64,000 bases of DNA from Nostoc sp. LPT (lineage in GTDB: Bacteria > Cyanobacteriota > Cyanobacteriia > Cyanobacteriales > Nostocaceae): positions 17,196 to 81,195 of the forward strand of contig NZ_JABXKF010000082.1 in assembly GCF_017115165.1 (NCBI RefSeq), given 5' to 3'. Both the position numbers and the translations under genes were made by a program. The notes below the pieces were generated by a model. The model was not told the DNA's origin and did not search any database. It worked only from the letters and a program-made list of their open reading frames with translations. Of the stretch, positions 8,850 through 64,000 are shown piece by piece (position 1 is the stretch's first letter; each line of letters starts with the position of its first letter).

Positions 8850-9683
8850 GTGCTGGGGTATAGTGTGAGACAGTTTCTTTTAGTAACAGACCTCGACTAT
8901 ACGCTGGTAGGCGATGACCAAGCAATGGCAAGGTTAAATCAACGGCTAGAACAGCATCGTCAGCAGCACCACACAAAGATTGTTTATTCAACTGGGCGAT
9001 CACTTTTTCTTTACCAAAAGCTTATAGATAAAAAAGCACTTTTAGAACCAGATGTACTTATATGTGCTGTAGGTACGGAAATTTACTACAGTAACAGTAA
9101 TACTCTAGATTCTAAGTGGTCAGATTATCTCTCTGAAGGTTGGGATAGAGACTTAGTTGTAAATATATCTAAGGCTTTTAGTGAATTAAAGCCCCAGCCA
9201 AATACCGAGCAAAGACCTTTTAAAGTTAGCTATTTCCTTGAAGAAGAAAAAGAAATCTCTGGAAATTGTTTGTCAGACCTAGAGTCTCGTTTGCTAAAGA
9301 AAGGATTAGATATTCAAGTTATCTGTAGCCTTGGTAGCTCTACTCATATCAACAACCTTGATAATAATTACAAAGATGGTAAAGATTTAGAGATTCAAGT
9401 TCTAGATATTCTGCCACGTAAGGCTAATAAAGGTATGGCAATGACCTTTGTACGCGAAAATCTAGAAATAGATGTAGCGCAAACTGTTGCTTGTGGCGAC
9501 TCCGGTAACGATATTGCCCTGTTTGCTGACAAGAAAGAAAAAGGTATTATCGTCGGCAATGCAAAACAGGAATTGCTGAAATGGCACGAAGCTAACCCAA
9601 ACCCAAATCGTTACTTAGCAAAAGCTCAATTTGCGGCTGGAATTGAAGAAGGTTTGCAGTATTTTGGATTTTTTGAAGGATAA
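8850..9683 (+). CDS. spp: sucrose-phosphate phosphatase (HAD-IIB), divergent full-length copy
   Basis: 277 aa (GTG at 8850; alternative GTG at 8865 gives MRQFLLVTDLD). HAD motifs LVTDLDYTLVG, STGRS, NKGMAM, CGDSGNDIALF. Carries a ~20-aa insertion (THINNLDNNYKDGKDLEIQV) relative to the adjacent remnant. Confidence 0.85.
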   Translation: MLGYSVRQFLLVTDLDYTLVGDDQAMARLNQRLEQHRQQHHTKIVYSTGRSLFLYQKLIDKKALLEPDVLICAVGTEIYYSNSNTLDSKWSDYLSEGWDRDLVVNISKAFSELKPQPNTEQRPFKVSYFLEEEKEISGNCLSDLESRLLKKGLDIQVICSLGSSTHINNLDNNYKDGKDLEIQVLDILPRKANKGMAMTFVRENLEIDVAQTVACGDSGNDIALFADKKEKGIIVGNAKQELLKWHEANPNPNRYLAKAQFAAGIEEGLQYFGFFEG

Positions 9684-9686
9684 AAC

Positions 9687-12600
9687 TTAATTGTTGAGTG
9701 AAATTTCATTCGACACACCAGAAATTTTCCTATCCCTTGAAGCCCCCAATTCTTCCAGCGCATCAATTTGGGCTTCGTCTAAACCTTTAACGCCCGAAAT
9801 ATTCATACCCTGATATAGTTTGCCAAGTTCTATGGTATTAATACTAATATTAATATCTCCCTCTACATCCCAAAACTTGATAGTCTGATCTTGGCTACAG
9901 CTAATAAGTCTCTTACCATCAGGACTAAATACTACAGACTCTACAGCAAGCTTATGTCCTTTGAGTGTCTTGTGAGGCTTACTTTCCCACTTCTTATCTG
10001 CCTCACTTATTTTCCATAGCGTAATAAAGCCACCATGTCCAGCACTAGCAATCATTGGTTTTTCGGGATGAATAGCGACAGAAAGTATTTTTTGATCTCC
10101 AGACCAAGTGAGTTTGTGAATAAGTTCTCCAGAATCAACATCCCACAATTTTAGTTGTTGATCAAAACCCCCGCTAACCAATTTATTTTCAAGCAATGTA
10201 TTTTCCTTTGGGCCAAAAGCAATGCTATGAACTTGGTCTTTATGATCATTGATATCTTTTTCTTTGTCATCTGAATTTACGTTCGGAGTTTCGTATGAAT
10301 TTACGTTCACAGTTTTAGTTCCGTCTGATTTTACCTTTACCTCTACCTTTCTCAGATAAATCTTTGTCTCACGGTCGCTGCTAGCTAGATAATCACCATT
10401 TGGACTAAAAGCTAGGGATAGGACTCGGTCTTTGTGTTCAATAAATTCTTTTAATATTTGAGGAGATTTTATATTATCATCTAGATTCCATAAAACAACT
10501 TTGTTGTCATTGCCTGCGCTAGCCAATATATTGCTGTCAGCATGAAAAACAACACATCGAACGCGTTTACTATGTCCTGTCAGTTTATTATTTCCTTGTT
10601 CTGTCAGTGCATTATCCTTATTTCCTTGTTCTGTTAGTTCATTATCCTTATTTACTATTAACTCAATGGATTCCCACTTTTCATCTTGTAACTGCCACAG
10701 AAAAATCTTATTGTCTTCACCACCACTGGCTATAAGTGTTCCATCTTTGTTGAAAGCCACTGACCAAACCCAATCAGTATGTTTTAAAAGTTTGTGAATT
10801 GGAATATCTGAGCGGTCATGATAATTCCAAATACGAATTGTATTGTCTTCACCTCCACAGGCAAAAGTTATACGATCTTTACCATCTTTATCTTTCTCTT
10901 TACTAAATGCTACTGACCAGACGCGATTAGCATATCCTGTCAAGGTCTGTTTACATTTCCATTTGTCGTTTTCGTTTTCCCAATGCCAAAGTTTGACGGT
11001 ACGCCCATCGCCACCGCTTATTAAAAGTTTAGGTTCGTTAGTAGGGTTAGGGCAAAATGTTACACTTCTGATCAAATGTTCATGACCCTCCAAGTTGTCA
11101 ATGAAATTCCATTCTTTCCCAATTAACTTCCACAGCCGAATTCTATGTTCGCTCTGCCCTTTCAAATTCCTATCGATACATCCAACAGCAAGAATCTTCC
11201 CATCCTGACTAAATGCTAGCGTCCGTATCTGACTAATTATATTTTCATTTTCTGTTGGAAACTGGAGTTCTGTCAAGCTTCCTTCTCCGTTTAAATTTAG
11301 ATAATTGGACAATATCACTTTTCCATCCTCACCTCCACTGGCTATAATGTTTTGTTGACTATTAAATGCAATACATCGTATTACTCCTGTATGAACTCTT
11401 TTATTTACCGCTTCTTTCCGGGTGTTGAAATACCAAATATAAATATCTCCATCCTTCCCACCGCTAACTAAAAGGTTGTCATTAATAAAAGTCATACAAG
11501 AGATATTAGTAGCAGATAAACTTGGCAATTTTTTTTTCTCAAGAATATCAAAAAATTTTATCGCATCACCCTTTCCATCTCCTCCAAAGGCCAGAATATT
11601 TCCACTAGGGCTAAACGCTACTGATAATACACGTCCCTTTGATAATACAGATCCCTGTTCGTTAGGTAAGTCAATATTGCTAAGTTTGAGTTTGCCTAGA
11701 GTATCGGTTTCAATCTCGAATAACCTAACACTACCGTCTTCTGCTCCCCAAGCAAATCTCCAAGGTTCAGTCTCTGAACTAAAAGCAACCGACCAAATTT
11801 GACTTCCCCTTTCGTTCTGAAAATAACAGAGTTCCAAGTTCTCTGTATTATGAACTCGAATTGATCCATGAGCATCCCCTGTAGCAAAATAACTACCATC
11901 AGCATTAAAGGCTATGGAATGAATGCAACCTAACGGTTCAGAAAAAATCGAGTTTTTCAGGTCAGAATTAGAAAAATCTACTCCTGTTAAAATAGCCTCT
12001 CGTAAGTCAGCCTCCAAAATAGTGATACTAGATAGATCAAAGTAGCTAAAATCTTTTTTTAAGTCGAGCTTCAATAAAAAATTTAAAATATTACCTGCGG
12101 CGTAGTTGTCTTTTTTTGATAATTCGCCCTTATCACTATTCACTAAAAGCTTGCTCATCCGGTCTGTGAGATTTTCTTCACCCTCAAATCCATTCAATAG
12201 AAGGTTTTTAATTTCATTAATATTGTAAAAATTTGAATTATTGGAACTGTCATTTTTTGCTCCATGAAAAAACAATTTTCCTTTTAAAAAGTTAAGTCTT
12301 CCTGTTTTTAGTTCTTGAATAAGATTACCAATGTTACTAATAATTTTTAATTCCATTATTGTATTTAACAACTTTACTATAGAATTTTCACTATTTGGAT
12401 TTTGACGTGCAATTTTAATAAGTTCAAGAAGTTCTTCAAATGGTTCTTTTTCCTGATTATTTGGTAATTCAATTTGTTTTCCGCTACAAAGTGAGATTAA
12501 CTTCTCTTGATCATTCGATGAGAGGCTTTGAAACAGATTCAGAACTAATTTTCCTCCTATGATGTCGTCTTCTAATAAAGATTTTTGTTGTGGAGTTGAT

Positions 12601-13058
12601 CTAACATTATTTTCATCTTCCACAGGTGGTCTATTAGACTCACGCCCAATTGCTTTGATAAGTTTTTTTAAGCCATCTTGATAGTTTTCGTTATCTATGG
12701 GGATATGTAAGATAGATTCAAGAAAAAGTGGCTTTTTACAGTCTTTATAAAGTACTGGAATCAGGCGGCGATTAGGATCACGTGATTCTACTTTGGCACG
12801 TTTTTCTTCGTCAATTTGTAGATTTATCCATGCTTCTCTTTCGCGTTTAACCCATTCCGAATCAATGCTATCAGGTGAGAGTACCAGGACAAAAACACTG
12901 GCATTAAAAAGAGCTTTTTCAAGCTTTGCTAGTATACTATCCCCTGGAATAATTTCATCTTCATCTAGCCAAACCTCAATATCTTCACTCTTTAAATTTC
13001 CTTTTAATCTCCTAACAAAGTCTTTATCGCTACTGCTATAACTCATGAAAACTTGCAT
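9687..13058 (-). CDS. TIR domain / helical linker / pentapeptide-like / WD40-repeat protein (about 14 blades)
   Basis: 1123 aa. N-terminal TIR (FMSYSSSDKDFVRRL...VLVLSPDSIDSEWVKRE). Helical region of about 200 aa with no P-loop. Then ILEADLREAILTGVDFSNSDLKNSIFSE, then many WD40 units (VWSVAFS...GGEDNTIRIWN). Visibly AT-rich with no HIP1 seen. Confidence 0.9.
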   Translation of the reverse strand: MQVFMSYSSSDKDFVRRLKGNLKSEDIEVWLDEDEIIPGDSILAKLEKALFNASVFVLVLSPDSIDSEWVKREREAWINLQIDEEKRAKVESRDPNRRLIPVLYKDCKKPLFLESILHIPIDNENYQDGLKKLIKAIGRESNRPPVEDENNVRSTPQQKSLLEDDIIGGKLVLNLFQSLSSNDQEKLISLCSGKQIELPNNQEKEPFEELLELIKIARQNPNSENSIVKLLNTIMELKIISNIGNLIQELKTGRLNFLKGKLFFHGAKNDSSNNSNFYNINEIKNLLLNGFEGEENLTDRMSKLLVNSDKGELSKKDNYAAGNILNFLLKLDLKKDFSYFDLSSITILEADLREAILTGVDFSNSDLKNSIFSEPLGCIHSIAFNADGSYFATGDAHGSIRVHNTENLELCYFQNERGSQIWSVAFSSETEPWRFAWGAEDGSVRLFEIETDTLGKLKLSNIDLPNEQGSVLSKGRVLSVAFSPSGNILAFGGDGKGDAIKFFDILEKKKLPSLSATNISCMTFINDNLLVSGGKDGDIYIWYFNTRKEAVNKRVHTGVIRCIAFNSQQNIIASGGEDGKVILSNYLNLNGEGSLTELQFPTENENIISQIRTLAFSQDGKILAVGCIDRNLKGQSEHRIRLWKLIGKEWNFIDNLEGHEHLIRSVTFCPNPTNEPKLLISGGDGRTVKLWHWENENDKWKCKQTLTGYANRVWSVAFSKEKDKDGKDRITFACGGEDNTIRIWNYHDRSDIPIHKLLKHTDWVWSVAFNKDGTLIASGGEDNKIFLWQLQDEKWESIELIVNKDNELTEQGNKDNALTEQGNNKLTGHSKRVRCVVFHADSNILASAGNDNKVVLWNLDDNIKSPQILKEFIEHKDRVLSLAFSPNGDYLASSDRETKIYLRKVEVKVKSDGTKTVNVNSYETPNVNSDDKEKDINDHKDQVHSIAFGPKENTLLENKLVSGGFDQQLKLWDVDSGELIHKLTWSGDQKILSVAIHPEKPMIASAGHGGFITLWKISEADKKWESKPHKTLKGHKLAVESVVFSPDGKRLISCSQDQTIKFWDVEGDINISINTIELGKLYQGMNISGVKGLDEAQIDALEELGASRDRKISGVSNEISLNN

Positions 13059-41867: not shown

Positions 41868-43040
41868 GTGATAGACAATCGGGCAATATCAATCAGTTTA
41901 TTTACAGGAGCAGGTGGACTAGATATTGGGATAGAACAGACAGATTTTCGGGTAGTAAGTGTTGTTGAGAAAGATCCTGATGCTGCGAAGACTATAGCTT
42001 TCAACCGACCTCACCTAAATAGTGCTGTAGCAAGAGATATACAGAAAATCACTGCTCAAAATCTTTTGGAAGAAGGGGGATATGTTATTAACCTTGGTAG
42101 ACCTCTACGTATTGGAGAAGTAGATTTAGTAACTGGCGGTCCCCCTTGTCAACCCTTCAGCACAGCAGGAAAACGTGGTTCAGTTATGGACCCGCGTGGC
42201 AGCTTGTTTATGGACTTTATACGTATTGTTGAACAAGTGCAGCCACGCTTTTTTATCATGGAGAATGTTAAAGGTTTACTCTCGGCTCCTATTCGTCATA
42301 GACCTCATCTGGAACGAGGAACGGGTTATGCTCCTCTGGAACTAGATGAAATGCAAGGGAGCGCTCTTGAGATTGTTTTAGAAGAAATAAAGCGCCTTGG
42401 TTATCAAGTTATTTATAAAGTCATGGAAGCAGCAGATTACGGTGTTCCGCAAAACAGAGCGCGAGTAATTTTTATTGGCTCAAGAGATGGTGAATCAGCT
42501 ACATTCCCTTTGCCTACTCATAGTAAAGATGGCTCTTTATTACCTCAATGGCGCACTCTTAAAGACGCTCTGATAAACTTAGAAGATCCACAACCGGAGT
42601 ATACTTCCTACTCAAAAAACCGTCTTCAATATTTAAAGCTTTTAAAAAGTGGTCAAAACTGGAGAGATTTACCTAAGGAATTGATAAAAGAAGCAATGGG
42701 AGGCGCTTACAAATCTGGAGGTGGTAAAGTAGGGTTTTACAGAAGGTTATGTTGGGATAAGCCATCTCCTACTGTTACTACAAGTCCTTACCAAAAGGCT
42801 ACAGATATGGGTCATCCAGAGGAACTGCGTCCTCTCAGTGTTCGAGAGTGCGCCAGGATTCAAACCTTTCCAGACTCATGGATTTTTTATGGTTCAACAG
42901 CCTCTAAGTACCGACAGATAGGTAATGCTGTACCTGTACTCTTAGCTCAAGCTATTGGTGACTATTTACATAGTCTAATTAGACAGGAAAAACCTAAAGG
43001 GATACCAGTCTTTGAACAGCTTTCACTATTTAATCACTAA
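41868..43040 (+). CDS. DNA (cytosine-5)-methyltransferase
   Basis: 390 aa with a GTG start. Motif I LFTGAGGLDIG, IV GGPPCQPFS, VI ENVKGL, VIII QNRARVIFIG, IX RECARIQTFPD, X GNAVPV. Confidence 0.95.
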   Translation: MIDNRAISISLFTGAGGLDIGIEQTDFRVVSVVEKDPDAAKTIAFNRPHLNSAVARDIQKITAQNLLEEGGYVINLGRPLRIGEVDLVTGGPPCQPFSTAGKRGSVMDPRGSLFMDFIRIVEQVQPRFFIMENVKGLLSAPIRHRPHLERGTGYAPLELDEMQGSALEIVLEEIKRLGYQVIYKVMEAADYGVPQNRARVIFIGSRDGESATFPLPTHSKDGSLLPQWRTLKDALINLEDPQPEYTSYSKNRLQYLKLLKSGQNWRDLPKELIKEAMGGAYKSGGGKVGFYRRLCWDKPSPTVTTSPYQKATDMGHPEELRPLSVRECARIQTFPDSWIFYGSTASKYRQIGNAVPVLLAQAIGDYLHSLIRQEKPKGIPVFEQLSLFNH

Positions 43041-53735: not shown

Positions 53736-54902
53736 TTAGAGAAGTTGATGAATTTCATTTACTGCACTGACGATCACAGAAGACGCTTTTTCGATTTCTT
53801 CTTTAGTTGTAAATTTCCCAAGACCAATTCTTAACGCTCCCTCAATTATGTTTTCCCCAAGATTCATAGCTTGCAGAACGTGAGATGGCGCGACAATACC
53901 TGATGAACAAGCCGCACCTGTAGAAATAGCTAATTGATGGCGAACTCTTGCAATAATGGCACTATTAGGGATGTCAGGGATAGAAATATGTAAGTTACCT
54001 GATAAACGGTTGTTTAAATCTCCATTCACCAGTAAATTAGGAATTTCAGCTTGAAGTAAGCTTTGCAGTTGATCTCGCAAAAGTGCGATCGCTGTTTCAT
54101 CTACTTCCATTTCTAATCGTCTCAATTGACAAGCTTCCCGCAAGCCAGCTATTCCGGGGACATTGAGTGTACCGGATCTGAGTCCCTCTTGATGTCCGCC
54201 ACCGTAAATAAGTGGTTCAAGATAATCACCTTTTTTTACTACTAAAGCACCAACGCCTTTGGGTGCATAAAGTTTATGTCCAGAAATAGCTAGATAGGTA
54301 ATACTCCATTCTTGAAAGTTGATGGGAATTTTGCCGACTGCTTGGGAAGCATCACATAAGAAAGGGATATTATATTTTTGAGCGATCGCTCCAATTTTTT
54401 GTACTGGGTAAATTGTCCCTACTTCATTATTAGCAGCCATCACACAGAGTAAGGAAGCACCGGAAGCACCGCCAGAGCAGACTTTTTCTAGATGTTCTAA
54501 ATCAATTTGGGCTTGTTGATTGACATTTAACCAAATAATTTTTGCAAGTCTTTTTTTGGCTAATGCTTGACAGGTATCTAAAACTGCTTTATGTTCAACT
54601 GGGGAAACAATTATTGTGGCGGGAGTATTTTGTTGATTAATATGTCCTTGAATTGCTAAGTTAATGCTTTCTGTTGCACCAGATGTAAAGATAATTTCCT
54701 TGGGAGAAGTATTGATTAATTCTGCTATTTTTTGACGGGCTTGTTTAACTGCTTGTGCGGCTTGATTGCCATAACCATGATCTACACTATTAGCATTATC
54801 AAAAGCAGTAGTCATATAGTACATGACTTTTTCTGCTACTCTAGAGTCAACGGGAGTAGTTGAATGGTAATCAAGGTAAATTATATTTTCTTGTGTAGTC
54901 AT
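53736..54902 (-). CDS. cysteine desulfurase (class V aminotransferase, short NifS/IscS/DndA-like form)
   Basis: 388 aa. YLDYHSTTP, FTSGATESINLAI, PLP lysine SGHKLYAPKGVGAL, RSGTLNVPGI, catalytic Cys loop STGAACSSG. The ATG is 6 nt after the GHKL ATPase stop. Confidence 0.9.
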   Translation of the reverse strand: MTTQENIIYLDYHSTTPVDSRVAEKVMYYMTTAFDNANSVDHGYGNQAAQAVKQARQKIAELINTSPKEIIFTSGATESINLAIQGHINQQNTPATIIVSPVEHKAVLDTCQALAKKRLAKIIWLNVNQQAQIDLEHLEKVCSGGASGASLLCVMAANNEVGTIYPVQKIGAIAQKYNIPFLCDASQAVGKIPINFQEWSITYLAISGHKLYAPKGVGALVVKKGDYLEPLIYGGGHQEGLRSGTLNVPGIAGLREACQLRRLEMEVDETAIALLRDQLQSLLQAEIPNLLVNGDLNNRLSGNLHISIPDIPNSAIIARVRHQLAISTGAACSSGIVAPSHVLQAMNLGENIIEGALRIGLGKFTTKEEIEKASSVIVSAVNEIHQLL

Positions 54903-54908
54903 TCTATT

Positions 54909-56735
54909 TCATAACTCATTCTCTAAAAATCTTCTGGCAACTCTCCCCCAATCAATGCGATTATCTTGAGCATTTTCTTTGCGTTTACCATCTGGTTGTT
55001 CATCCTCATACCTTGCCCATGCCATTAGTAGTAGCTTCAATCCATCTAAGGAGTTAATCAACCGAGAACGTAAAGTATCTATATCAGCTTTATCCACGTC
55101 CTCCTCTAAGATTTCTACTAAATTTTGAGAAGCGGGATGATTGGTATTCAAAGTAACAATAATTGCTCCTCCTCTGGGTTTAACGGAGAAGAAAGCAGGA
55201 ATATCAAGAGGAGCTTCAACAAAGGTATATTTTAAGCCATCATCTACTGTAGTTGCTGCTAATAGTTCGGCTTTGGTTTCAGTCACGCCTTCTTCTTTTA
55301 AAGTTTCTTTAATGACCTGTTTTTGTTCTTCTTTTGGCAATTCTTCATCTTCATCACTTTTACTTTTATGACCCTGTAATTTACGTTCTTGCGTAACAGT
55401 AGTAGCTACTTTTTCAGGTTTATAAGGGTCATGGCGTTTTTCAGTGGTACGAGTGCCTTTAGTCTGTGCTTGCAGTAAACGACGAATAACACTCAATTGA
55501 GTCTTGATTTTATGGGCTATATCTAAAAGAGGAGCTTTTGGGTCTTCATCTTCTTGGAGTTCTTCTTTGAGTTGAGTAATAGTTTTTCCATTTTCTAATA
55601 AAGACTCAATCTCAAATTCTAGAAGTTCAGCAAAATTCCGAGCTGATTGTTTATTATTAGTTACTCCAAAAATATCATCAAGAAAGGGTGGAAATTCTAC
55701 TTCTACTCCCCACCATCTTTCTCTTGAATCATAAGCAATCACTACTCCTGTATCCATATCTAATTCTCGTCCAGCACGAACTACAGAAACACCAACATTT
55801 TTAGCAGCGTGTTTTCCATGAGGTAAATCACCAGGATTTTTTCCTGGTTCGGCTTGGCGGGCTTCTTCTTTGGCGTAAGAGAAACGCACTTTTACATCAT
55901 GTTCTTTCTCTTTAAAATTAATTTTATAAGTTGCTTCATAAGATGTATCACCTTCCCAAGGTCGGAACATTGCCTGATTATCAAATGATGTAGGGCAGGA
56001 AGTCTTTTCTATTAGATAACCTGGATCGTTGGGGAGGGCATATTTTTCTACAATCAGGTTATATAAAGCATCTAAATCAAATGCTACCATGCGGATTTTT
56101 ACTTGACCGCTATTCAGAAATTGGCGATACATTCTCCCAATCACAAATTCAGAATTATCAATAATCGCTTTTCCGGTTCGCCAAATACAACGATCTATTT
56201 TTGACCAGACTACTAATGTGCCACTTTCACCAAATTTTTGACCGATTTTTGTCCAAATCATCGGAATTGGTTTAGCAGTAGGTTCAGGTACTTCGGTCAT
56301 CCGACGATTTTTGATCTCATCTAAGTCAAGGTAAGTGTGGAGTGCATTTTCTATGCCATTTTGCCATGACCACACATCTAACCGTTGGCATTGGGAAATG
56401 GAAGAAGATGGTAAACCCATGCCAAAACGTCCAATTCCGGTATGTTTATCTTCATCTATGTACGTACCATTGCCAAATTGCAGTGCTAGACGTAAAACAT
56501 TAGCATCCATACCACGACCATTATCTAACACTGCTATTTGTTCAATACGCGATCGCTTCCTCCCCTCCACCTGTTGTTTTCGTTCACCACACAGTAACTC
56601 TACTTGCGATGCACCGGCTTGAATGGCATTATCCATTAATTCGGCGATCGCATAAGCGGCGTTTTTATAACCGTTATCGCGCATTGCTTGCACTGCTAGG
56701 TGAGTTGGCACGATATCATGGGCGTTAGCATTCAT
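54909..56735 (-). CDS. MORC-like GHKL (HATPase_c_3-type) ATPase
   Basis: The ORF-track start at 56762 is trimmed to the ATG at 56735 (MNANAHD), which overlaps the helicase TGA (ATGA). Bergerat-fold motifs AIAELMDNAIQAG, VLDNGRGMD, GIGRFGMGLPSSS. Second half has VSVVRAGRELD, RWWGVEVEF, FGVTNNKQ. Confidence 0.85.
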   Translation of the reverse strand: MNANAHDIVPTHLAVQAMRDNGYKNAAYAIAELMDNAIQAGASQVELLCGERKQQVEGRKRSRIEQIAVLDNGRGMDANVLRLALQFGNGTYIDEDKHTGIGRFGMGLPSSSISQCQRLDVWSWQNGIENALHTYLDLDEIKNRRMTEVPEPTAKPIPMIWTKIGQKFGESGTLVVWSKIDRCIWRTGKAIIDNSEFVIGRMYRQFLNSGQVKIRMVAFDLDALYNLIVEKYALPNDPGYLIEKTSCPTSFDNQAMFRPWEGDTSYEATYKINFKEKEHDVKVRFSYAKEEARQAEPGKNPGDLPHGKHAAKNVGVSVVRAGRELDMDTGVVIAYDSRERWWGVEVEFPPFLDDIFGVTNNKQSARNFAELLEFEIESLLENGKTITQLKEELQEDEDPKAPLLDIAHKIKTQLSVIRRLLQAQTKGTRTTEKRHDPYKPEKVATTVTQERKLQGHKSKSDEDEELPKEEQKQVIKETLKEEGVTETKAELLAATTVDDGLKYTFVEAPLDIPAFFSVKPRGGAIIVTLNTNHPASQNLVEILEEDVDKADIDTLRSRLINSLDGLKLLLMAWARYEDEQPDGKRKENAQDNRIDWGRVARRFLENEL

Positions 56736-57787
56736 GGGTTTTTCCTCCAAACGTCTTCCCAATTGTGAAAAGCTGATGCTACTGAACCAAAACCGGGGAG
56801 TTGGCTATCCACAACCGTGACAATTTCGGCGGTAGCATTACCCCCAGCTTTGAGTCCGCGAATGGCGCGTCCTACCATTTGGCTGTAGAGGACAAGGGAT
56901 TTAGTGGGACGGGCGATAACGGCGGCGCTGGTTTTGGGTGCATCGAATCCAGTGGTTAAAACGCCGTAGTTACATAAAATCTTGGTTTGGGGCTGTTCGT
57001 CTTTAAAACTTTGAATCAGCCTTTCTCTCTCTGATTTGGGGGTATCACCTGTAGCAGCATCAGCATTAAATCCTCTGAAACGCAATATTGAAGCAATGAG
57101 TCTAGCGTGTTCAACGGAGGTATTAAAAACGATAATCCGTTGATGATGTTGGGCTAGTGCTTCTAGTTCTAGGATGATGCGGAGGTTGCGTTGTTCGTCT
57201 GCTGCTAACCGATTGAGGATATATTGGGGGATGTCTAATTCTGTATTAATCCGATTTAGGTCTTGGGGAGTTAGTTCAATACCCGTTTCATAAAATAAAG
57301 AGCGATAGTTAACTTTAGCGAGGTATTGTTGATCGACGAGATAATCAATCGGGTTGTGATAACCTGGGATTTCTAAAGTAACTTTCTGTTGGGCGAAGAA
57401 TTTTGCTAGTTGTGCATCGGTGTTAATATCAGCCCAAGTCCTTCCCGGTGTAGCGGTTAAACCTAATAAGGCGGTTTTTTCGTAGGGGATGACTAAAGCA
57501 TCTAAGACGAGTTTATAGGTTTCGGCAACTGCTTGATGGGCTTCATCGATAATTACCAATGAACAACGCACACCTAGTTGATTAATAAAGCGAATACTCT
57601 TTTTAGCGGCGTGATAGACTTTCGCTAATCCTGCTACTACTAAGCCATCTTGAGCTTGTGCTAAGTCTAACTCATGGCTACCCCAGAAGCGATAGGTTGA
57701 AATGGTGCGATCGCCTAAACTGTCCCAGGCTTTTTGAAATTCTGTAACTGCTTGTTCACAAAGTTCTTCACTGATATGCCAACCAAA
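56732..57787 (-). pseudogene. SF2 (DEAH/ResIII-type) helicase lacking its N-terminal Walker A region
   Basis: Motif II VIIDEAH, III LGLTATPGR, V/VI VLTTGFDAP and QMVGRAIRG are present. The frame is open only back to the stop at 57788-57790. That is 25 nt from the upstream gene's stop, with no ATG and no GxGKT. Only a GTG at 57571 is available as a start. Confidence 0.7.
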
Positions 57788-57811
57788 TTACTAAAGTGGG
57801 TTCACTGTTTC

Positions 57812-59200
57812 TTAGGCGTAAACCCAATTAGGGCTAAAACCTTGTATAGTTGCTAAAGAAATTAAAGGTAGAGTTGTTATTTTATAAGCCTTACTCAAAA
57901 TATCTAAATTTAATAAATCATCAGCTTGACTAACTTTTAATTCAGATACAAATGACTCAGTATATTTTAACCATTGATTTTTAGATATGTTTTCATAGGC
58001 AATAGTTAAACCGATATGTTGCAACTCTAGAAAAGCCTGAAAATATTCTTCAGATGGCAAGTTATTAGATTTAGACGAATTAACATATTTTGTAGTTGGA
58101 ATTAAATTCCATAGTTGATCGTGAGCTACAAATGACCAAGGCAGATAATGATCTAATGAAATTTCATCCTTATCCAATTTCACTTGAGAATAAATACATT
58201 TAATATCTTGATATTCTAAAATAGTTTTCCAATATTTAGTTTGATTAGTTAAAGAATCTCTTTGGTGTGGCATAAATAATTTGTTAACCACATTGGGAGT
58301 GCTGGGGTTTCTTTGTTGCATATAATTTAACCATTCCCAAGATGCCCAGCCCCTAACTATTGTGTAATTTTCCTCTAAATACTGAATCCAATCTGGATGT
58401 AGAATAATGGCGTTACAATTTTTCTGATCTTCAGCGTTAAAACAGTATAAAGGCTTTTTAATATTAAATTGATCGTTAGCTAAATTAATAATAGCTGGAT
58501 TAACATCATAATCTTTTAATCCTCTAGTTTCTTGAAAAAAGAAAGGACGAATTAAACGATAAGAAACATAGCGATTAATAGAAATAACAATATCATCAAG
58601 ATTTTGATTATTAATAGTTGCACGTAAAAGCTTTTTATCTGTATCTCTAAACTTTAAAATTGGTTCTGTAATTTCTAGCTCAAGAGCATCTAATTTATTA
58701 GCAATTTGGTCTTGTATTCCAAAATAAATTTTAAAATAGTTGTGAGGATACCAAGCATTAGCTAACATTTCAACAATAACTTCTCGAAAGCTAATAGGCG
58801 ACAAAGTATCAAAGCTTCTTCTTTTTAAAATATCTAATACTGATAAAAAGTATAGGTATTTATAAGAGTTGGTTATACTCTTAAATATTTGAGCTAAAAC
58901 AGTAACATTAACCTTGTCTGAAAGTGGTAAATTTTGATTAGTAATTTGATTTTTAAATAATGTTAAATCCCCTAAATATACTTGAATGAAATCATTTGCG
59001 GCTGATTTATTAATCTTATTTAATGCCTTAACAATGTCTGCAACAGTTTCAGCAGTGGGGTCAATTTTTTCGTGATACCAACGGAAGACAATCGGGCGCT
59101 CAACACCTAAACCTATCGCCAGCTGGCTTTGGCTAATGTTGTAAGACTCTAAAACCTGTCTTAGTGCTTGTCCTGCTTTTCCCATGATTTCCATTATCAC
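57812..59200 (-). CDS. HTH (XRE-like) / central helical domain / C-terminal HNH endonuclease protein
   Basis: 462 aa. N-terminal LRQVLESYNISQSQLAIGLGVERPIVFRWYHEK. Central motif TNSYKYLYFLSVLDILKR. C-terminal ISLDHYLPWSFVAHDQLWNLIPTTKYVNSSKSN (H-N-N/H). Very AT-rich with no HIP1 seen. Confidence 0.8.
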   Translation of the reverse strand: MIMEIMGKAGQALRQVLESYNISQSQLAIGLGVERPIVFRWYHEKIDPTAETVADIVKALNKINKSAANDFIQVYLGDLTLFKNQITNQNLPLSDKVNVTVLAQIFKSITNSYKYLYFLSVLDILKRRSFDTLSPISFREVIVEMLANAWYPHNYFKIYFGIQDQIANKLDALELEITEPILKFRDTDKKLLRATINNQNLDDIVISINRYVSYRLIRPFFFQETRGLKDYDVNPAIINLANDQFNIKKPLYCFNAEDQKNCNAIILHPDWIQYLEENYTIVRGWASWEWLNYMQQRNPSTPNVVNKLFMPHQRDSLTNQTKYWKTILEYQDIKCIYSQVKLDKDEISLDHYLPWSFVAHDQLWNLIPTTKYVNSSKSNNLPSEEYFQAFLELQHIGLTIAYENISKNQWLKYTESFVSELKVSQADDLLNLDILSKAYKITTLPLISLATIQGFSPNWVYA

Positions 59201-59302: not shown

Positions 59303-59524
59303 ATGGCAGAAGAATTAGTGACATTAGAAGATAACAGCAGCAATCAAGCCCAGGTAAGTAGAGAAAAGATAAAACACCTGCTAGTCGGTAGTCCTAATGT
59401 AGTGAAGAGGACTATCTATCGCTTGCATACTACAGGTTATGCAGAAATAGGCTCTTGGTCTAAACCTGTAAGAGCAGGTAGTTTAGGTGAATCAGGCGAT
59501 GTAGTGAGCATATTAATTAGATAG
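59303..59524 (+). CDS. small hypothetical protein
   Basis: 73-aa ATG ORF (LLVGSPNVVKRTIYRLHTTGYAEIGSWSKP). Followed by a hairpin at 59551-59581. Confidence 0.5.
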   Translation: MAEELVTLEDNSSNQAQVSREKIKHLLVGSPNVVKRTIYRLHTTGYAEIGSWSKPVRAGSLGESGDVVSILIR

Positions 59525-59550
59525 CAAGTCTAGGAAATAAAAGGTGTAGG

Positions 59551-59581
59551 GAGTTGGTGCGATCGCGCATTGCACCGACTC
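59551..59581. repeat. hairpin repeat, same family as 60518-60547
   Basis: gagttggtgc/gcaccgactc stem preceded by aaaggtgtaggGAGTTGG. The second copy reads aaaagtgtaagGAGTTGG. Confidence 0.5.
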
Positions 59582-59613
59582 TTGATAATTTAAATAACTA
59601 GAGAACTAATTGA

Positions 59614-60510
59614 ATGACACGTTTCATACATGACAAATTTGCCAAAGACTATCTTGAAGAATTGTTAAAAAATTACGGAGAAGTCAAGTTATCAGAAAAA
59701 GTCTCAGGAGAAATTAAAGAAATAGATGTTTTCTTCACTCCTGACAAACAGCAAAGCTCTAATTTACAAATACTGGGTTTACTAGGAAGATTTGCTGAAA
59801 ATCCTGCACTCATAGAACCATTCCGCAATCCAGCTTCTACCGATGAAATATGTGACTGTATTCTAAAATTATTAGAAGTCAAGGCTCTCTTACGACGAGA
59901 AGCTAAAGCTAATAAAACTAAACTTCAGGTCTCAGAAATTCCCAAATTGTGGGTTCTTACTCCAACGGTATCTGAAACTAGATTGTCTAGTTTTGGAACT
60001 ATGCAAAAAGAAGGTTGGTTATCAAGAGTATATTTTCTCGCAGATGCTTTGCGGACAGCAATTGTAGCGATACATCAATTACCACAGATACCGGAAACTT
60101 TATGGTTGAGGCTTTTGGGTAGGGGAAGCGTGCAGTCGCAAGCGATTATCGAATTGCAAGCGTTACCATTAAATCATCCATACCAAAAAGCAACCCTGGA
60201 ATTAGTTTACAACTTGCGCGAAAACTTGAGAGTAAATCAAGAATTAGAAGCAGATAATAGGGAGTTAGTTATGCGATTAGAACCACTTTATCAAAGAGAC
60301 AGAGAACAAGCTAAACAAGAAGGAAGACAACAAGGAGAACAACATTTAATTATACGTCAACTTAATCGCCATGTTGGGGAAATTAATGAATCATTAATCG
60401 AGCGAATTAAAGGATTATCGCTTGAACAATTAGAGAATTTAGGAGAAGCATTATTAGACTTTTCTAATGTTGCTGATTTAGAAATTTGGTTAAACCAACA
60501 ACAAGGGTAA
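59614..60510 (+). CDS. Rpn/PD-(D/E)xK-like protein with DUF4351-like C-terminal domain
   Basis: 298 aa. N-terminal DKFAKDYLEELLKNYGEVKLSEKVSGEIKEIDVFFTP. C-terminal EGRQQGEQHLIIRQLNRHVGEI...LSLEQLENLGEALLDF, typical of the abundant cyanobacterial family as I recall it. Confidence 0.65.
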   Translation: MTRFIHDKFAKDYLEELLKNYGEVKLSEKVSGEIKEIDVFFTPDKQQSSNLQILGLLGRFAENPALIEPFRNPASTDEICDCILKLLEVKALLRREAKANKTKLQVSEIPKLWVLTPTVSETRLSSFGTMQKEGWLSRVYFLADALRTAIVAIHQLPQIPETLWLRLLGRGSVQSQAIIELQALPLNHPYQKATLELVYNLRENLRVNQELEADNRELVMRLEPLYQRDREQAKQEGRQQGEQHLIIRQLNRHVGEINESLIERIKGLSLEQLENLGEALLDFSNVADLEIWLNQQQG

Positions 60511-60517
60511 AAAGTGT

Positions 60518-60547
60518 AAGGAGTTGGGCCGCTCGGCCCAACTCCTT
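60518..60547. terminator. strong hairpin between convergent genes (possible bidirectional terminator)
   Basis: aaggagttgggccg/cggcccaactcctt, about 13 bp stem. On the minus strand it is followed by acacttttta. Confidence 0.5.
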
Positions 60548-60758
60548 ATTCATAAAACTAAGAAATTTAAAGTAAAAGAATAAACATTTAACCGAAGTTT
60601 TTCTCTGTTATTTCATCAGTTCGCTTTTCTTCAATTTTAGTAACCGTCTCTGGCAAATCAGCATTTAAAATTCGTTCACTCAACTTTGCCAAAACCGCTT
60701 GTCGTAACTGCTGATCGTCAGGTAATTTTGCCAAAAATTCGTCAACAATCTGTTCAAC

Positions 60759-63700
60759 CTACGATTCTCTCCCATGATCCACCCATAGCATTCGATTGAT
60801 TTCTTGACCATCTGGACGAGTCATTGTTATCCATCGGGCTTCAAAACCTTCTCCCTTGGCGGCTACTTCCTTTTGCAAAGCTTCCAAATTCTTAAACCGT
60901 CGCACCAAATCCGCTAATTTCATCTCAAATGCAGTGGCATCATCATCCGTCCATGATTCAGCAGGTTTATCCGCAACAATCATCACCAAAGCTTCCAACC
61001 ATTGAGAATCACTTGCGGTTTCATCGGATGCTGCTCGAATAAAGCGTTTTAGTGAGGATTCAATACATTTTCCGGCTAAATAATTCGCCCTTACCCGCAA
61101 ATCTTCTCTAAGTTTTGTTTCCTTACTTCTGACCCCAAAGCCTTCATAAATCAGTTTTTGACAATCACTCAATAAGCGATCGTAAGCTGTATGAATCTCT
61201 CTGAGGGCATGAACTAACTTAGTACGTAAAGTTTTCGCAGTGACACCATCATCCCCGGCTTCAGTGCCGATAGAGGGTAAATTACAAGCTGCTGGTAAAG
61301 TTTTAAACAACAATTCATCAGGCTCAACAGTAGTTTTTAATGCCTTTAAAATGGCTCTTGGTTCATCCGCCAAACGTCGGGTTTGTTGAGTATATTTAGG
61401 CAGTTTGTTAACAAATTGATAAAGAGGAGTAACTACCGTTAACAGGGTGGCATTACGAACTTTACTCAATTTTTTTAATTGAGGATTGCGTAAAATTACT
61501 TCTAATTCTTTGAAAACTTCTGCCCTTAATCCGACTACTGCAAAATACTTAACTGCAAACCGTTCAGGATATTTAACTAATAATTCAAAATGTTCTGTTC
61601 CTAATACAGGAATAAATGTACCGTCTTGATAAAGTCCCAAATCATCAGCGTGATACAATAGTACCGCCGCTAAAATAACCGGAACTGCACCTTGTTTCAC
61701 ACCGTAGGGAGGTGCTGCTAAATGTTGATAAAGTAAATTAAAAGTTTGGCTTGTTTCTGTTGCTGCTAAACAAAAATTCTCAACTGCTTCCCACAGAGAA
61801 TTCAAACCCGAATTTTCTAATGGTGGATAAAAATCCCAATAATCATCTTCTTGGCGATAAATCCCTGTTTCTTCTAACAGAGAATAATACATACTAACTT
61901 CGGGGCCATAACCCTCTAAGCCTAATATCTCTTCACTTTGATGTTCTAACATTGCCTGAATCAATTCTCGTCTAGCCTTTACGCCTTGAGAGGTTAAATC
62001 TCGACGGTTAATTAATTCATTCCACAAAATTGCACTGCGATGATAAACGCGAGCGCAAATATCAGAAAGCTTACTATTAAAGTCAGTAATGTTATTGAGT
62101 ATTCCGACTTGTCCTTGAATCCAACATTGCTGATTTACACCTATACTAAATGACTGATTGAGAGTTTCATCTAAAAATTCTTCAGCTTCTTGTAAACGAT
62201 AATTTACCTCTTTTCTCGCTACCCCATCAGTTTGTAACTCTTTGGCTGTTTTTTTGATGTTATTTAAAGCCACAAATTCTAGAGTACGAATTCGCAAAAT
62301 ATCTAAGTTAGCTGCACTCAAAATAACTAATGGTTTACCATCGCTAGTTGTGGAAGGAACAGAACTAGGCATTTCGTCATCTACCCAATACCCAACCAAA
62401 CCATCTGCATCCACACTACTACAACGTAACTGACTCAAATCTTGGAAATTATCTAAATAATGCCGTTCAAAATAACGTAAAGTTCCCGTCTGATAACTGT
62501 GACGTTGTGCTACTAAAGGTCTTAAAGGACGCTGGAGAGATAACAGCTTAACTAAAGGCGATCGCTCTTGTTCTATATATGTACTTAACTCACCATCGAC
62601 ATTAAAATCAGAACCTTGCCAAATCCGCAATTCATCTAATTGACGACGATGAGTAATTAGATTCTGTTTTAGTAGTTTATCAATAATTTGTTGCCAATAA
62701 TTAACCTGTGCTTCTGACGGGCGATCGCACATTGCTAAAGATACTAAAGTTCTTGTCGCCCTCATCGAACCTATAACTGTAATCAGGTTCAAAATCCCAA
62801 TAGTTTTTAGTACCCTAAGACTATCTTCTTCTAAGCGTTTAGCATCATTAATTAAATCTTGAATTTCTACCCATCTTTGCAAATTAGGGCGAGAGGCTAA
62901 ACCCATTCCCGCAGCTTCAATAAAATAGTCATAAACTCGATCTAACTTAAGACTTGGTAAGTTATTATCTTTAACTGTTACTTCTTCTAGGAAATTACGA
63001 AATGATAAAGGCTCGCCACTCGTTAAAAATGTGAATAAAGAACGGTCATTTTGAGCATACCGTTGACAGAGAGTTGGTAAAGCAAACGCAGATAAGGGAT
63101 GTAGCGGATAAACTTTTTTTATAACTTGATCGGTTATTTCTTCATCTACAATTATTGATTCTAAATATTTGCTCCACTCCTCAGAGTCACTACGAATAGC
63201 ACAGCTTATATTGTCTGCTGCCGACGAATCAATCGCTTCTCCAATTAAACTCATCATTTGTCCAGATGATTCAGTAAAAGCAATATCCTCAAATCGCCCT
63301 TGAATCTTTGCCCATTCGTTTTTTTGAAAAGTTGCTAATCTTTGAGTATATTCTGCAAATGCTTGATGTAAAATACCTAAAATGTAAATAGGAGTTTTGG
63401 TATCTTTTGGTAATTCAGCTAATTGTTGTAAAAGATATAAATCCTCAGCACCTTGAGCATGAGCAGCATACTCTAAATTCTTACCCAGCTCATCAATAAC
63501 AAGGAAAATACCAGTTTTAGATTCCTTGGCAACTTCTAATACCAAATTAGGAATCTCTTTACTATCAACTTTTCCCCCATCATTAATTTCTGCTTCTAAA
63601 TCTACTAACTGACGAACAACATTGATTTTGTTTTTTTGGGTAGCAGTCCAAAAAGTATCAACACCTGTTAATAAAGCTCTGATAATGGTATGACTAATCG

Positions 63701-64000
63701 GTTCTCTTTGTCCCGTAGCCACAGCCCTCATTAATCCTACCGAGTTAATTTTGTCTTGAATGAATTGATAAATGTCACTATCTTTACCTAATTTTTCTTC
63801 AGCTATTGATAAAGCTTTAATGTGCATTTTATTCTGAGACTTAGCACATAAGGAAATTAAATAATGAGTAAAAGCAGATTTTCCAGTCCCATAAACACTG
63901 GTTAATGTCCAAGCTCTATTTCCTTCATCAGAATTAAAACTATTTAAGATACGTGAGAGAGAATCAATTGCTTTTTTAGTCAGAACATAACCCTCTAAAG
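60759..64000 (-). CDS. large P-loop NTPase (over 1079 aa, 5' end outside window)
   Basis: The track ORF starts at M (63827), but the frame stays open to base 64000. Hand translation upstream gives ...WTLTSVYGTGKSAFTHYLISL (Walker A at about 63876-63890). Walker B-like IFLVIDELGK. Long helical remainder. TAG stop at 60759-60761. Confidence 0.85.
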   Translation of the reverse strand, partial: LEGYVLTKKAIDSLSRILNSFNSDEGNRAWTLTSVYGTGKSAFTHYLISLCAKSQNKMHIKALSIAEEKLGKDSDIYQFIQDKINSVGLMRAVATGQREPISHTIIRALLTGVDTFWTATQKNKINVVRQLVDLEAEINDGGKVDSKEIPNLVLEVAKESKTGIFLVIDELGKNLEYAAHAQGAEDLYLLQQLAELPKDTKTPIYILGILHQAFAEYTQRLATFQKNEWAKIQGRFEDIAFTESSGQMMSLIGEAIDSSAADNISCAIRSDSEEWSKYLESIIVDEEITDQVIKKVYPLHPLSAFALPTLCQRYAQNDRSLFTFLTSGEPLSFRNFLEEVTVKDNNLPSLKLDRVYDYFIEAAGMGLASRPNLQRWVEIQDLINDAKRLEEDSLRVLKTIGILNLITVIGSMRATRTLVSLAMCDRPSEAQVNYWQQIIDKLLKQNLITHRRQLDELRIWQGSDFNVDGELSTYIEQERSPLVKLLSLQRPLRPLVAQRHSYQTGTLRYFERHYLDNFQDLSQLRCSSVDADGLVGYWVDDEMPSSVPSTTSDGKPLVILSAANLDILRIRTLEFVALNNIKKTAKELQTDGVARKEVNYRLQEAEEFLDETLNQSFSIGVNQQCWIQGQVGILNNITDFNSKLSDICARVYHRSAILWNELINRRDLTSQGVKARRELIQAMLEHQSEEILGLEGYGPEVSMYYSLLEETGIYRQEDDYWDFYPPLENSGLNSLWEAVENFCLAATETSQTFNLLYQHLAAPPYGVKQGAVPVILAAVLLYHADDLGLYQDGTFIPVLGTEHFELLVKYPERFAVKYFAVVGLRAEVFKELEVILRNPQLKKLSKVRNATLLTVVTPLYQFVNKLPKYTQQTRRLADEPRAILKALKTTVEPDELLFKTLPAACNLPSIGTEAGDDGVTAKTLRTKLVHALREIHTAYDRLLSDCQKLIYEGFGVRSKETKLREDLRVRANYLAGKCIESSLKRFIRAASDETASDSQWLEALVMIVADKPAESWTDDDATAFEMKLADLVRRFKNLEALQKEVAAKGEGFEARWITMTRPDGQEINRMLWVDHGRES

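Follow-up and report, generated by a model that had tools for sequence, protein, structure and literature searches.

A group of minus-strand genes in the genome of Nostoc sp. LPT (contig NZ_JABXKF010000082.1, positions 17,196 to 81,195; this stretch of 64,000 nucleotides (nt) is hereafter called the window) begins at position 53,736 of the window, runs past its end, and encodes a cysteine desulfurase, a GHKL-type ATPase, a helicase fragment, an HNH nuclease and the ATPase SspC. We interpret this region, with a probability of about 0.72, as the downstream part of an Ssp phosphorothioation (PT) restriction-modification (R-M) island, which in this strain would be decayed and remodelled by the HNH gene, and in whose complete form a trio of SF2 helicase, GHKL ATPase and PLD nuclease would constitute the restriction half.

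Gene content of the region

The sspA gene (53736-54902, minus strand) codes for an intact NifS/IscS-type cysteine desulfurase of 388 amino acids (aa; Pfam Aminotran_5 8e-73), whose translation shows the PLP-lysine motif SGHK and the cysteine loop STGAAC. Its ATG is separated by 6 nt (AATAGA) from the TGA of an intact gene (54909-56735, minus strand) encoding a MORC/MutL-like ATPase with GHKL and S5-transducer domains (608 aa from ATG, with a TTG extension of the open reading frame (ORF) to 56762; HATPase_c_3 2e-22). The start of this gene overlaps the stop of the preceding helicase ORF in an ATGA tetranucleotide (56732-56735). The latter ORF (56732-57571, minus strand; 279 aa from GTG; Helicase_C 5e-15) comprises the C-terminal half of an SF2 helicase with motifs II-VI, and it is preceded by an untranslated helicase remnant carrying a 1-nt insertion (57572-57811, minus strand; codons ~198-278 as judged from three-frame translation and alignment). 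Then follows the gene of a 457-aa protein (57812-59185, minus strand; the ORF reaches 462 aa with a GTG start at 59200) composed of an XRE-type HTH, a central region and an HNH_4 nuclease domain (HNH_4 6.5e-11, weak HTH_3). Beyond two plus-strand genes lies sspC (60759 to past the window end at 64000, minus strand), encoding a BrxC-like ATPase with the Walker A motif GTGKS present, which was matched by the PADLOC SspC model PDLC02781 (E=0, 1470 bits, profile positions 75-1093 of 1104). The SspC and HNH proteins are each 100% identical to a database protein of Nostoc sp. LPT. Identities were assigned with PADLOC v2, NCBIfam (June 2026) and Pfam.

The preliminary description of this DNA, made from the sequence alone, had recognized four minus-strand ORFs between 53736 and 59200, and these were found again at the same positions, together with the ATGA overlap, the 6-nt spacer, the HNH nuclease with an XRE-type HTH and the short desulfurase with its PLP-lysine and cysteine loop. 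The MORC-like nature of the GHKL protein was likewise borne out (see below). Helicase motifs II-VI are present, but they belong to the C-terminal half only, and this truncation (homology to intact orthologues starts at residue ~198-212) had been overlooked, as had SspC; the cassette extends beyond 59200.

The desulfurase is matched equally well by the PADLOC models of DndA (1e-136) and SspA (3e-135), and it scores under every NCBIfam equivalog cut-off (DndA, TIGR03235, 328.6 vs 480; IscS 353 vs 643; NifS 375 vs 531). It is a putative member of a distinct SspA-type clade that is defined by genetic context. In Ssp systems SspA mobilises cysteine sulfur, SspD is a PP-loop ATP pyrophosphatase, SspB is a DUF4007 DNA-binding nickase and SspC is a BrxC-like ATPase. 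As SspC is adjacent in the window, the desulfurase is identified as the SspA of an Ssp phosphorothioation system, and the whole locus as an Ssp-type DNA phosphorothioation island. The earlier proposal of a sulfur-linked DNA modification-restriction system holds for the type of locus. The local copy lacks SspD and is therefore probably not working.

Canonical cassette and its linkage to Ssp genes

Using a profile of the GHKL protein, 80 loci (L numbers below) were retrieved from species-representative genomes and mapped with the window proteins and the reference proteins of three intact loci, and representative loci were annotated. Linkage was counted in the 49 GHKL-seeded loci whose flanking sequence extends for at least 7 kb in each direction (full-flank loci). 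The canonical order is SspB (DUF4007)-SspC-SspD-SF2 helicase-GHKL-PLD, with SspA placed after PLD in cyanobacteria or elsewhere. SspD of this cassette is a short (~270 aa) PAPS-reductase-like protein with an SGGKDS motif, the helicase (ResIII and Helicase_C) has ~540-557 aa when intact, the GHKL ATPase has ~605 aa, and the PLD protein (~310-325 aa) has a single conserved HKD motif, HAKYYRAD...GSANLT.

SspC was found in 39, SspB in 36, SspD in 35, the helicase in 43, PLD in 25 and SspA in 28 of the 49 full-flank loci; the helicase stands directly upstream of GHKL in all 43 cases (33 of them full length), PLD is located downstream in its 25, and the desulfurase orthologues of the 28 loci are 62-93% identical and lie in the same cassette. 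The hosts represent at least seven phyla (Cyanobacteriota, Acidobacteriota, Chloroflexota, Armatimonadota, Bacteroidota, Alpha-, Beta- and Gammaproteobacteria, and Ignavibacteriae), and the cassette also occurs on plasmids. Complete annotated examples, in which RefSeq gives the genes generic names, are located in plasmid A of Trichormus variabilis ATCC 29413 and in plasmid p.BB_2 of Pannonibacter phragmitetus. Because sspBCD genes occur in only ~3% of genomes (PMC12914056), the linkage of Ssp and GHKL genes is far beyond chance. Moreover, the BCD block and the helicase-GHKL-PLD block remain adjacent despite flips of orientation (convergent in L066 and L075-77, co-directional in L053-59), which is the behaviour expected of the modification and restriction halves of one putative system. 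Lone helicase-GHKL pairs, which lack PLD and have Ssp genes nowhere within 10 kb, were also observed in Microcoleus spp. (L043-L050) and in L034.

Between SspD and the helicase, the cassettes of cyanobacteria contain a variable slot, in which extra effectors or regulators gather: SspE in L008, DndB-like proteins in L009, L018, L030 and L032, an ORC/CDC6-like ATPase in L024, a DAC cyclase in L037, and, in L035 (6101-8347), a 155-aa GIY-YIG protein accompanied by a second HATPase_c_3 protein (~580 aa) of distant relationship. The same second-GHKL and GIY-YIG pair stands in place of the helicase in L068 (7748-9954). It is at this slot that the HNH gene is predicted to have entered the cassette.

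GHKL ATPase and its junction with sspA

The motifs ELMDNAIQAG, LDNGRGMD and GIGRFGMGL of the GHKL protein fall on columns that are invariant across homologues, and the nearest solved structures by sequence are MORC2, MORC3 and MORC4 (profile matches, covering the ATP-binding domain only). Foldseek searches with an AlphaFold2 model of moderate confidence (predicted local distance difference test score, pLDDT, 73) retrieved SMCHD1, MORC2/3/4, the N-terminal part of MutL and Hsp90 over ~400 columns (E~1e-10). This supports the assignment of the protein as a probable MORC/MutL-like GHKL+S5 ATPase, named at that level and not to a (para)MORC family. The family is large and falls into 835 clusters at 50% identity (E<=1e-30); among the best 150 listed, the majority are full length.

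The tight spacing of the GHKL gene and sspA had led to the proposal that the desulfurase is directly coupled to, and co-translated with, the ATPase. This proposal did not survive the comparison of loci. In less degraded cyanobacterial loci (L018, L020, L024, L029, L030, L032, L035, L039, L040, L051 and plasmid A of Trichormus variabilis) the PLD gene lies between GHKL and SspA, and outside cyanobacteria SspA is either encoded upstream of the helicase or transcribed divergently from SspB. When the conservation of the GHKL-desulfurase adjacency was checked across genomes, as the preliminary description had recommended, the same tight junction was found in a few close Nostoc relatives (L002, L006, L008 and L013). 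As PLD separates the two genes in relatives and SspA is placed elsewhere in other phyla, the direct GHKL-sspA junction is a scar of the PLD deletion and not a functional coupling. A new sulfur-linked system independent of Dnd and Ssp, in which the MORC-like ATPase would be co-translated with the cysteine desulfurase and work directly with it, is consequently very improbable: it would account for the 6-nt spacing and for the same tight junction in these four relatives, but it is contradicted by the intervening PLD and by the other positions of SspA, SspC within the window and SspB just beyond it speak against an Ssp-independent system, and 21 of the 49 full-flank loci have no nearby SspA.

HTH-HNH gene

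The guanine and cytosine (G+C) content of the HNH gene is 28-33%, vs 38-45% in its flanks. Its product has 775 relatives at E<=1e-3, of which the best 120 are all cyanobacterial, and they exist in two forms, of 457 aa with the HTH and of 377 aa without it. Every occurrence examined is situated inside an Ssp locus, i.e., in about 18 GHKL-seeded loci and in all three independently seeded ones (Pleurocapsa, Lyngbya and Nodularia), and none of the loci examined combines the HNH gene with an intact helicase. The catalytic columns (DH...N...N) are invariant. According to an AlphaFold2 model of moderate quality (pLDDT 68.7) and Foldseek, the N-terminal XRE HTH resembles R-M controller proteins and the HNH domain is of the Cas9 type.

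A sulfur-binding (SBD/wHTH) domain was sought in the central ~250 aa of the HNH protein and found no support, as Foldseek with this moderate model matched only the HTH and the HNH. Descent of the protein from SspE was also considered and abandoned, for the "SspE" comparison set proved heterogeneous: the 783-aa proteins of L018, L030 and L032 are DndB-like DGQHR proteins, and only L008 has a true SspE. A search for mobile-element ends around the HNH-orf73-DUF4351 segment gave no meaningful terminal repeats. As a separate observation, L082 and L084 (Pleurocapsa and Lyngbya) carry LAGLIDADG_2 homing-endonuclease-like genes (8936-9892), which lie on the opposite strand directly upstream of HNH and truncate sspC.

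Lesions of the local copy

Intact helicase orthologues (557 and 545 aa) match the window only from residue ~198-212 onwards, so that the N-terminal domain and Walker A are lost. The helicase ORF begins at motif II (DEAH) and corresponds to residues 279-557 of the 557-aa orthologues, only the ResIII tail (last ~35 positions) being matched. The 240 nt between the HNH stop and the helicase GTG are a remnant of the helicase gene, which reads "LRNSEPTLVIWLAY" in one frame and "SEELCEQAV..." in another, and it is frameshifted by a 1-nt insertion after "WLAY" that is private to the window. An alignment of the junctions of 18 loci revealed that the breakpoint in the helicase gene, at codon ~198 just past the Walker A region, is shared by about 15 HNH-bearing loci. 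In five loci (L007, L017, L019, L038 and L086) a 24-nt stop-bearing insert, longer in L086, is located inside the GCGATCGC site (HIP1 palindrome) of the remnant; this insert, aligned to window position ~57700 and present in five species, behaves like a small mobile repeat. The 5' remnant diverges more slowly than the synonymous rate (dS), which fits a probably recent loss of coding capacity there. Separately, the helicase C-half has a G+C content of 0.44-0.45 and a synonymous divergence markedly below that of GHKL, HNH and SspC in the same locus pairs.

The preliminary description had seen no SspD gene, and tblastn confirmed that there is no SspD match in the 64-kb window. In the close relative L002, SspD is situated between two copies of orf73, whereas the window has the orf73 and DUF4351 pair (59303-60510) in this place, which suggests that recombination between orf73 copies may have yielded the arrangement without SspD. 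PLD had no tblastn match in the window either, and it is absent from all Nostoc-type loci among those retrieved; L003 and L005 have a small HNH gene in the PLD position. The sspC gene is interrupted by a premature TAG (60759-60761) vs CAG in L003, and the 56 homologous in-frame codons that follow the stop, i.e., its last 56 codons, were traced by alignment with L003 (60588-60758, minus strand). As a result, SspC has 1110 aa in this genome vs 1167-1175 aa in relatives, its last 57 aa being removed.

Contig L088 comes from the same genome and overlaps the window end by 3569 identical bases. The sequence past base 64000 had been proposed as a place to look for further sulfur-modification genes. 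A DUF4007 gene, sspB (L088 9019-9992), lies just past the window end, but it is split by a 1-nt deletion into ORFs of 106 and 196 aa (comparison with Nostoc sp. WHI, L003), and no SspD or DndC gene, nor any other PAPS_reduct gene, is present in the 10 kb beyond. Sister loci (L004, L006, L008, L011, L019 and L025) have their own frameshifts or deletions in SspC, SspA, GHKL or helicase. The additional lesions of the window look recent. Because PT synthesis requires a protein with a PAPS-reductase domain (PMC12914056) and SspD is absent, this locus alone should not modify DNA, and most likely it can no longer phosphorothioate DNA by itself.

A second PT-related cluster was observed on the opposite strand of L088 (55-6297, ~3.7-10 kb past base 64000), separated from sspB by LexA and OTCase genes. 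It encodes a PbeA/"DNA phosphorothioation system restriction enzyme" helicase (TIGR04095, 660 bits vs a cut-off of 600), a 57-aa ORF, PbeC (CxC ABC ATPase, PADLOC E=0), a DUF3370 fragment, two Uma2 proteins and dnd_assoc_4 (TIGR04062).

Selection on the retained genes

Pairwise Nei-Gojobori estimates of the ratio of nonsynonymous to synonymous substitution rates (dN/dS) were 0.06-0.13 for the helicase C-half, 0.10-0.24 for GHKL, 0.14-0.20 for HNH, 0.09-0.17 for SspC and 0.15-0.29 for SspA. The low values include pairs in which both members carry the truncation (helicase C-half dS up to ~0.5), and the dS of HNH tracks that of GHKL; for these two reasons the HNH-type cassette is judged to be old and to have been maintained.

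Weighing of alternative explanations

Several points weigh against the interpretation of the region as a decayed and remodelled Ssp island. The restriction role of the trio is deduced from domain content and synteny only. The truncation of SspC costs the protein no more than 57 aa at its end, which may be tolerable, the frameshift in SspB was seen in a single short-read assembly, and SspD could come in trans, with the Pbe-like PT cluster standing ~3 kb beyond SspB. Furthermore, dN/dS values of 0.06-0.29, obtained even for truncated pairs, argue for a function of HNH, helicase C-half and GHKL having been retained in the lineage. One alternative is a remodelled working variant, which we consider rather unlikely, and in which the HTH-HNH protein would, in cyanobacteria, have replaced the helicase motor (and often PLD) as the effector, HNH, helicase C-half and GHKL would form an active PT-sensing or PT-independent module, and SspD and SspB functions would be provided in trans by another PT cluster. 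Such a variant would agree with purifying selection on these three genes across dS up to ~0.5-0.8 in loci that are all truncated, with the parallel dS of HNH and GHKL, which indicates an old insertion and not repeated re-acquisition, with the invariant HNH catalytic columns and with the confinement of the HNH family to Ssp loci. Some HNH-bearing loci (L016, L020 and L037) keep SspB, SspC and SspD, and L020 and L037 keep PLD too; the adjacent Pbe-like cluster favours supply in trans, and DndH provides a precedent for a C-terminal helicase domain that stands alone (PMC10853773). However, a helicase reduced to its RecA2 part and devoid of Walker A is unable to hydrolyse ATP, this genome combines four further lesions (in SspB, SspC, SspD and the helicase remnant) and sister loci show many independent ones, the 5' helicase remnant is broken by a frameshift or by stop-bearing inserts in six loci, and neither the 64-kb window nor the 10 kb beyond it holds SspD or DndC.

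The low G+C content of the HNH gene, the common helicase breakpoint in about 15 loci, the fact that the helicase is never intact alongside HNH, and the LAGLIDADG genes beside HNH in L082 and L084 would all suit another scenario, in which the HTH-HNH gene is a selfish homing-type endonuclease gene targeting the cassette helicase, and the remainder of the cassette is in collateral decay after the helicase was killed. We regard this scenario as unlikely, since there is no intron or intein context, the upstream 198 helicase codons are deleted and not displaced, no terminal repeats surround HNH, the divergence of HNH parallels that of the neighbouring genes, HNH itself is under purifying selection, and it is also found at other positions in the cassette, i.e., directly against GHKL in L020 and, in L037, in the interval from SspC to SspD.

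Proposed function of the cassette and of the trio

According to the preferred interpretation of the region as a remnant of an Ssp R-M island, a complete island would be composed of the modification module SspA/B/C/D and the three-gene module of SF2 helicase, GHKL+S5 ATPase and single-HKD PLD nuclease. SspABCD would write PT marks, and the trio would assemble into a restriction complex resembling those of Type I/III, with the helicase as a translocase, the GHKL dimer as an ATP-gated DNA clamp or looping engine, and the HKD protein as the nuclease. Such a complex would attack DNA without the PT mark and spare PT-marked DNA. This logic would parallel that of MORC-helicase-nuclease R-M operons (Iyer et al. 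2008), with phosphorothioation replacing methylation. In the Nostoc copy, sspD and PLD have been deleted, the N-terminal domain and Walker A of the helicase lost to the inserted HTH-HNH gene (with a frameshift in addition), sspC shortened by a premature stop and sspB frameshifted; HNH, GHKL, the helicase C-half and SspA persist as intact ORFs with a history of purifying selection.

Most sspBCD clusters lack a recognized restriction partner: only ~16% carry SspE and/or SspFGH (PMC8092258), and the dominant Acinetobacter baumannii clone was reported without a cognate nuclease (PMC12421847); "histidine kinase" genes, left unexplained, adjoin Acinetobacter ssp clusters without a nuclease, and these are a candidate lead only. 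We tentatively propose, at somewhat less than even odds, that the trio is an unnamed, phylum-spanning restriction module of Ssp systems and one of the "missing" partners of those sspBCD clusters (~84%) in which both SspE and SspFGH are lacking; on this view, cyanobacteria further swapped in the HNH protein. For the GHKL, helicase and PLD proteins, PADLOC v2 and NCBIfam (June 2026) offer generic domain models only, and a literature search on Ssp or PT together with GHKL or MORC gave no description of the trio, although its coverage was incomplete and a prior description is possible. The Ssp system itself is known, and the helicase-GHKL-PLD effector trio is probably undescribed.

As the trio travels with SspBCD across phyla and plasmids, it is a testable candidate for the missing restriction partner, and, if the proposal is true, MORC-type ATPases would be linked to a backbone (sulfur) epigenetic mark instead of methylation. 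The window copy is of lesser importance and serves mainly as an example of erosion and remodelling of a PT island.

Neighbouring features

The small ORF orf73 (59303-59524, plus strand) is divergent from the HNH gene and kept at the same position in Nostocales loci, and it has no family match in Pfam, NCBIfam or PADLOC. Next to it, a gene for a DUF4351/Rpn-like protein (59614-60510, plus strand; DUF4351 3e-26) appears as a passenger inserted between SspC and HNH, and many Nostocales loci have it in the corresponding place. Between sspC and the convergent DUF4351 gene, an inverted repeat (60517-60548, no strand assigned), with perfect 15-bp arms around a loop of 2 nt, forms a terminator-like hairpin that resembles a bidirectional terminator; it was the sole notable element in promoter and terminator scans of the locus, whose counts were not above the shuffled expectation. 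The remaining window is ordinary chromosome (sensor kinases, phytochrome, FcmB/FcmC and QueC). Two further genes may be mentioned: one (9687-13058, minus strand) whose 1123-aa product combines a TIR domain at its N terminus with a long array of WD40 repeats and is possibly involved in defence or signalling, and a solitary C-5 cytosine DNA methylase gene (41868-43040, plus strand; DNA_methylase 8e-73).

Comparison with known systems

The SspABCD-SspE phosphorothioation defence was reportedly described by Xiong et al. in 2020. The cassette shares with it and with the SspABCD-SspFGH defence (Wang et al. 2021, PMC8092258) the modification genes SspA, SspB (DUF4007), SspC and SspD, with strong PADLOC matches, and the relative L008 even carries a bona fide SspE in the same cassette. 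The difference lies in the helicase, GHKL and PLD proteins, which are dissimilar to SspE and SspFGH; among the latter, SspF possesses a Walker A motif, and SspH resembles FtsK (PMC8092258). In the window copy SspA is present, SspC is present though truncated, SspB is broken and SspD is missing.

The preliminary description had left room for a relationship to the SspE, SspFGH or DndFGH modules. Identity of the helicase, GHKL or HNH proteins with SspE, SspFGH, DndFGH or PbeABCD was, however, ruled out by PADLOC and NCBIfam, which gave no match to these modules for the unexplained proteins beyond a weak match of the helicase core to PbeA (the best PADLOC match of the HNH protein was the HNH domain of Cas9 only), and the published description of SspFGH shares no domains with them. 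DndFGH is comparable in being a multi-ATPase, nuclease-containing PT restriction partner that is often decoupled from its modification module or decayed, but there is no sequence similarity, and its domains are a kinase-like P-loop, a wHTH triad and HerA/FtsK plus a restriction endonuclease (REase).

The Pbe systems are said to have been described by Xiong in 2019. PbeA is an SF2 helicase with an HKD nuclease, and the window helicase has a weak PbeA match (2.8e-15) that covers the generic helicase core only, while a genuine PbeA/PbeC cluster is found past the end of the window. In contrast to PbeABCD and the CxC-ABC-DndE systems (Rakesh et al. 2024, PMC10853773), the trio has neither a CxC ABC ATPase nor DndE and its HKD domain is encoded by a separate gene, and Pbe has no GHKL protein. 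For MZA, the likeness is confined to MzaB, which is the best PADLOC and NCBIfam match of the GHKL protein through the N-terminal HATPase_c_3 domain; the score of 77 bits vs a cut-off of 850 covers only profile positions 2-195 of 480, and there are no MzaA, C, D or E genes.

There is also a resemblance in domain content to the prokaryotic MORC/paraMORC R-M operons, for which DNA looping or clamping between recognition and cleavage sites was predicted (Iyer, Abhiman and Aravind 2008, PMC2292703). These operons have a GHKL+S5 ATPase, and beside it an SF2 helicase together with an HKD or HNH nuclease. Both features are seen here, with the caveat that the window has a truncated helicase and an HNH nuclease, not PLD. 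The two differ in their modification partners, which are DNA methylases in the MORC/paraMORC operons and the Ssp phosphorothioation module in the cassette described in this work.

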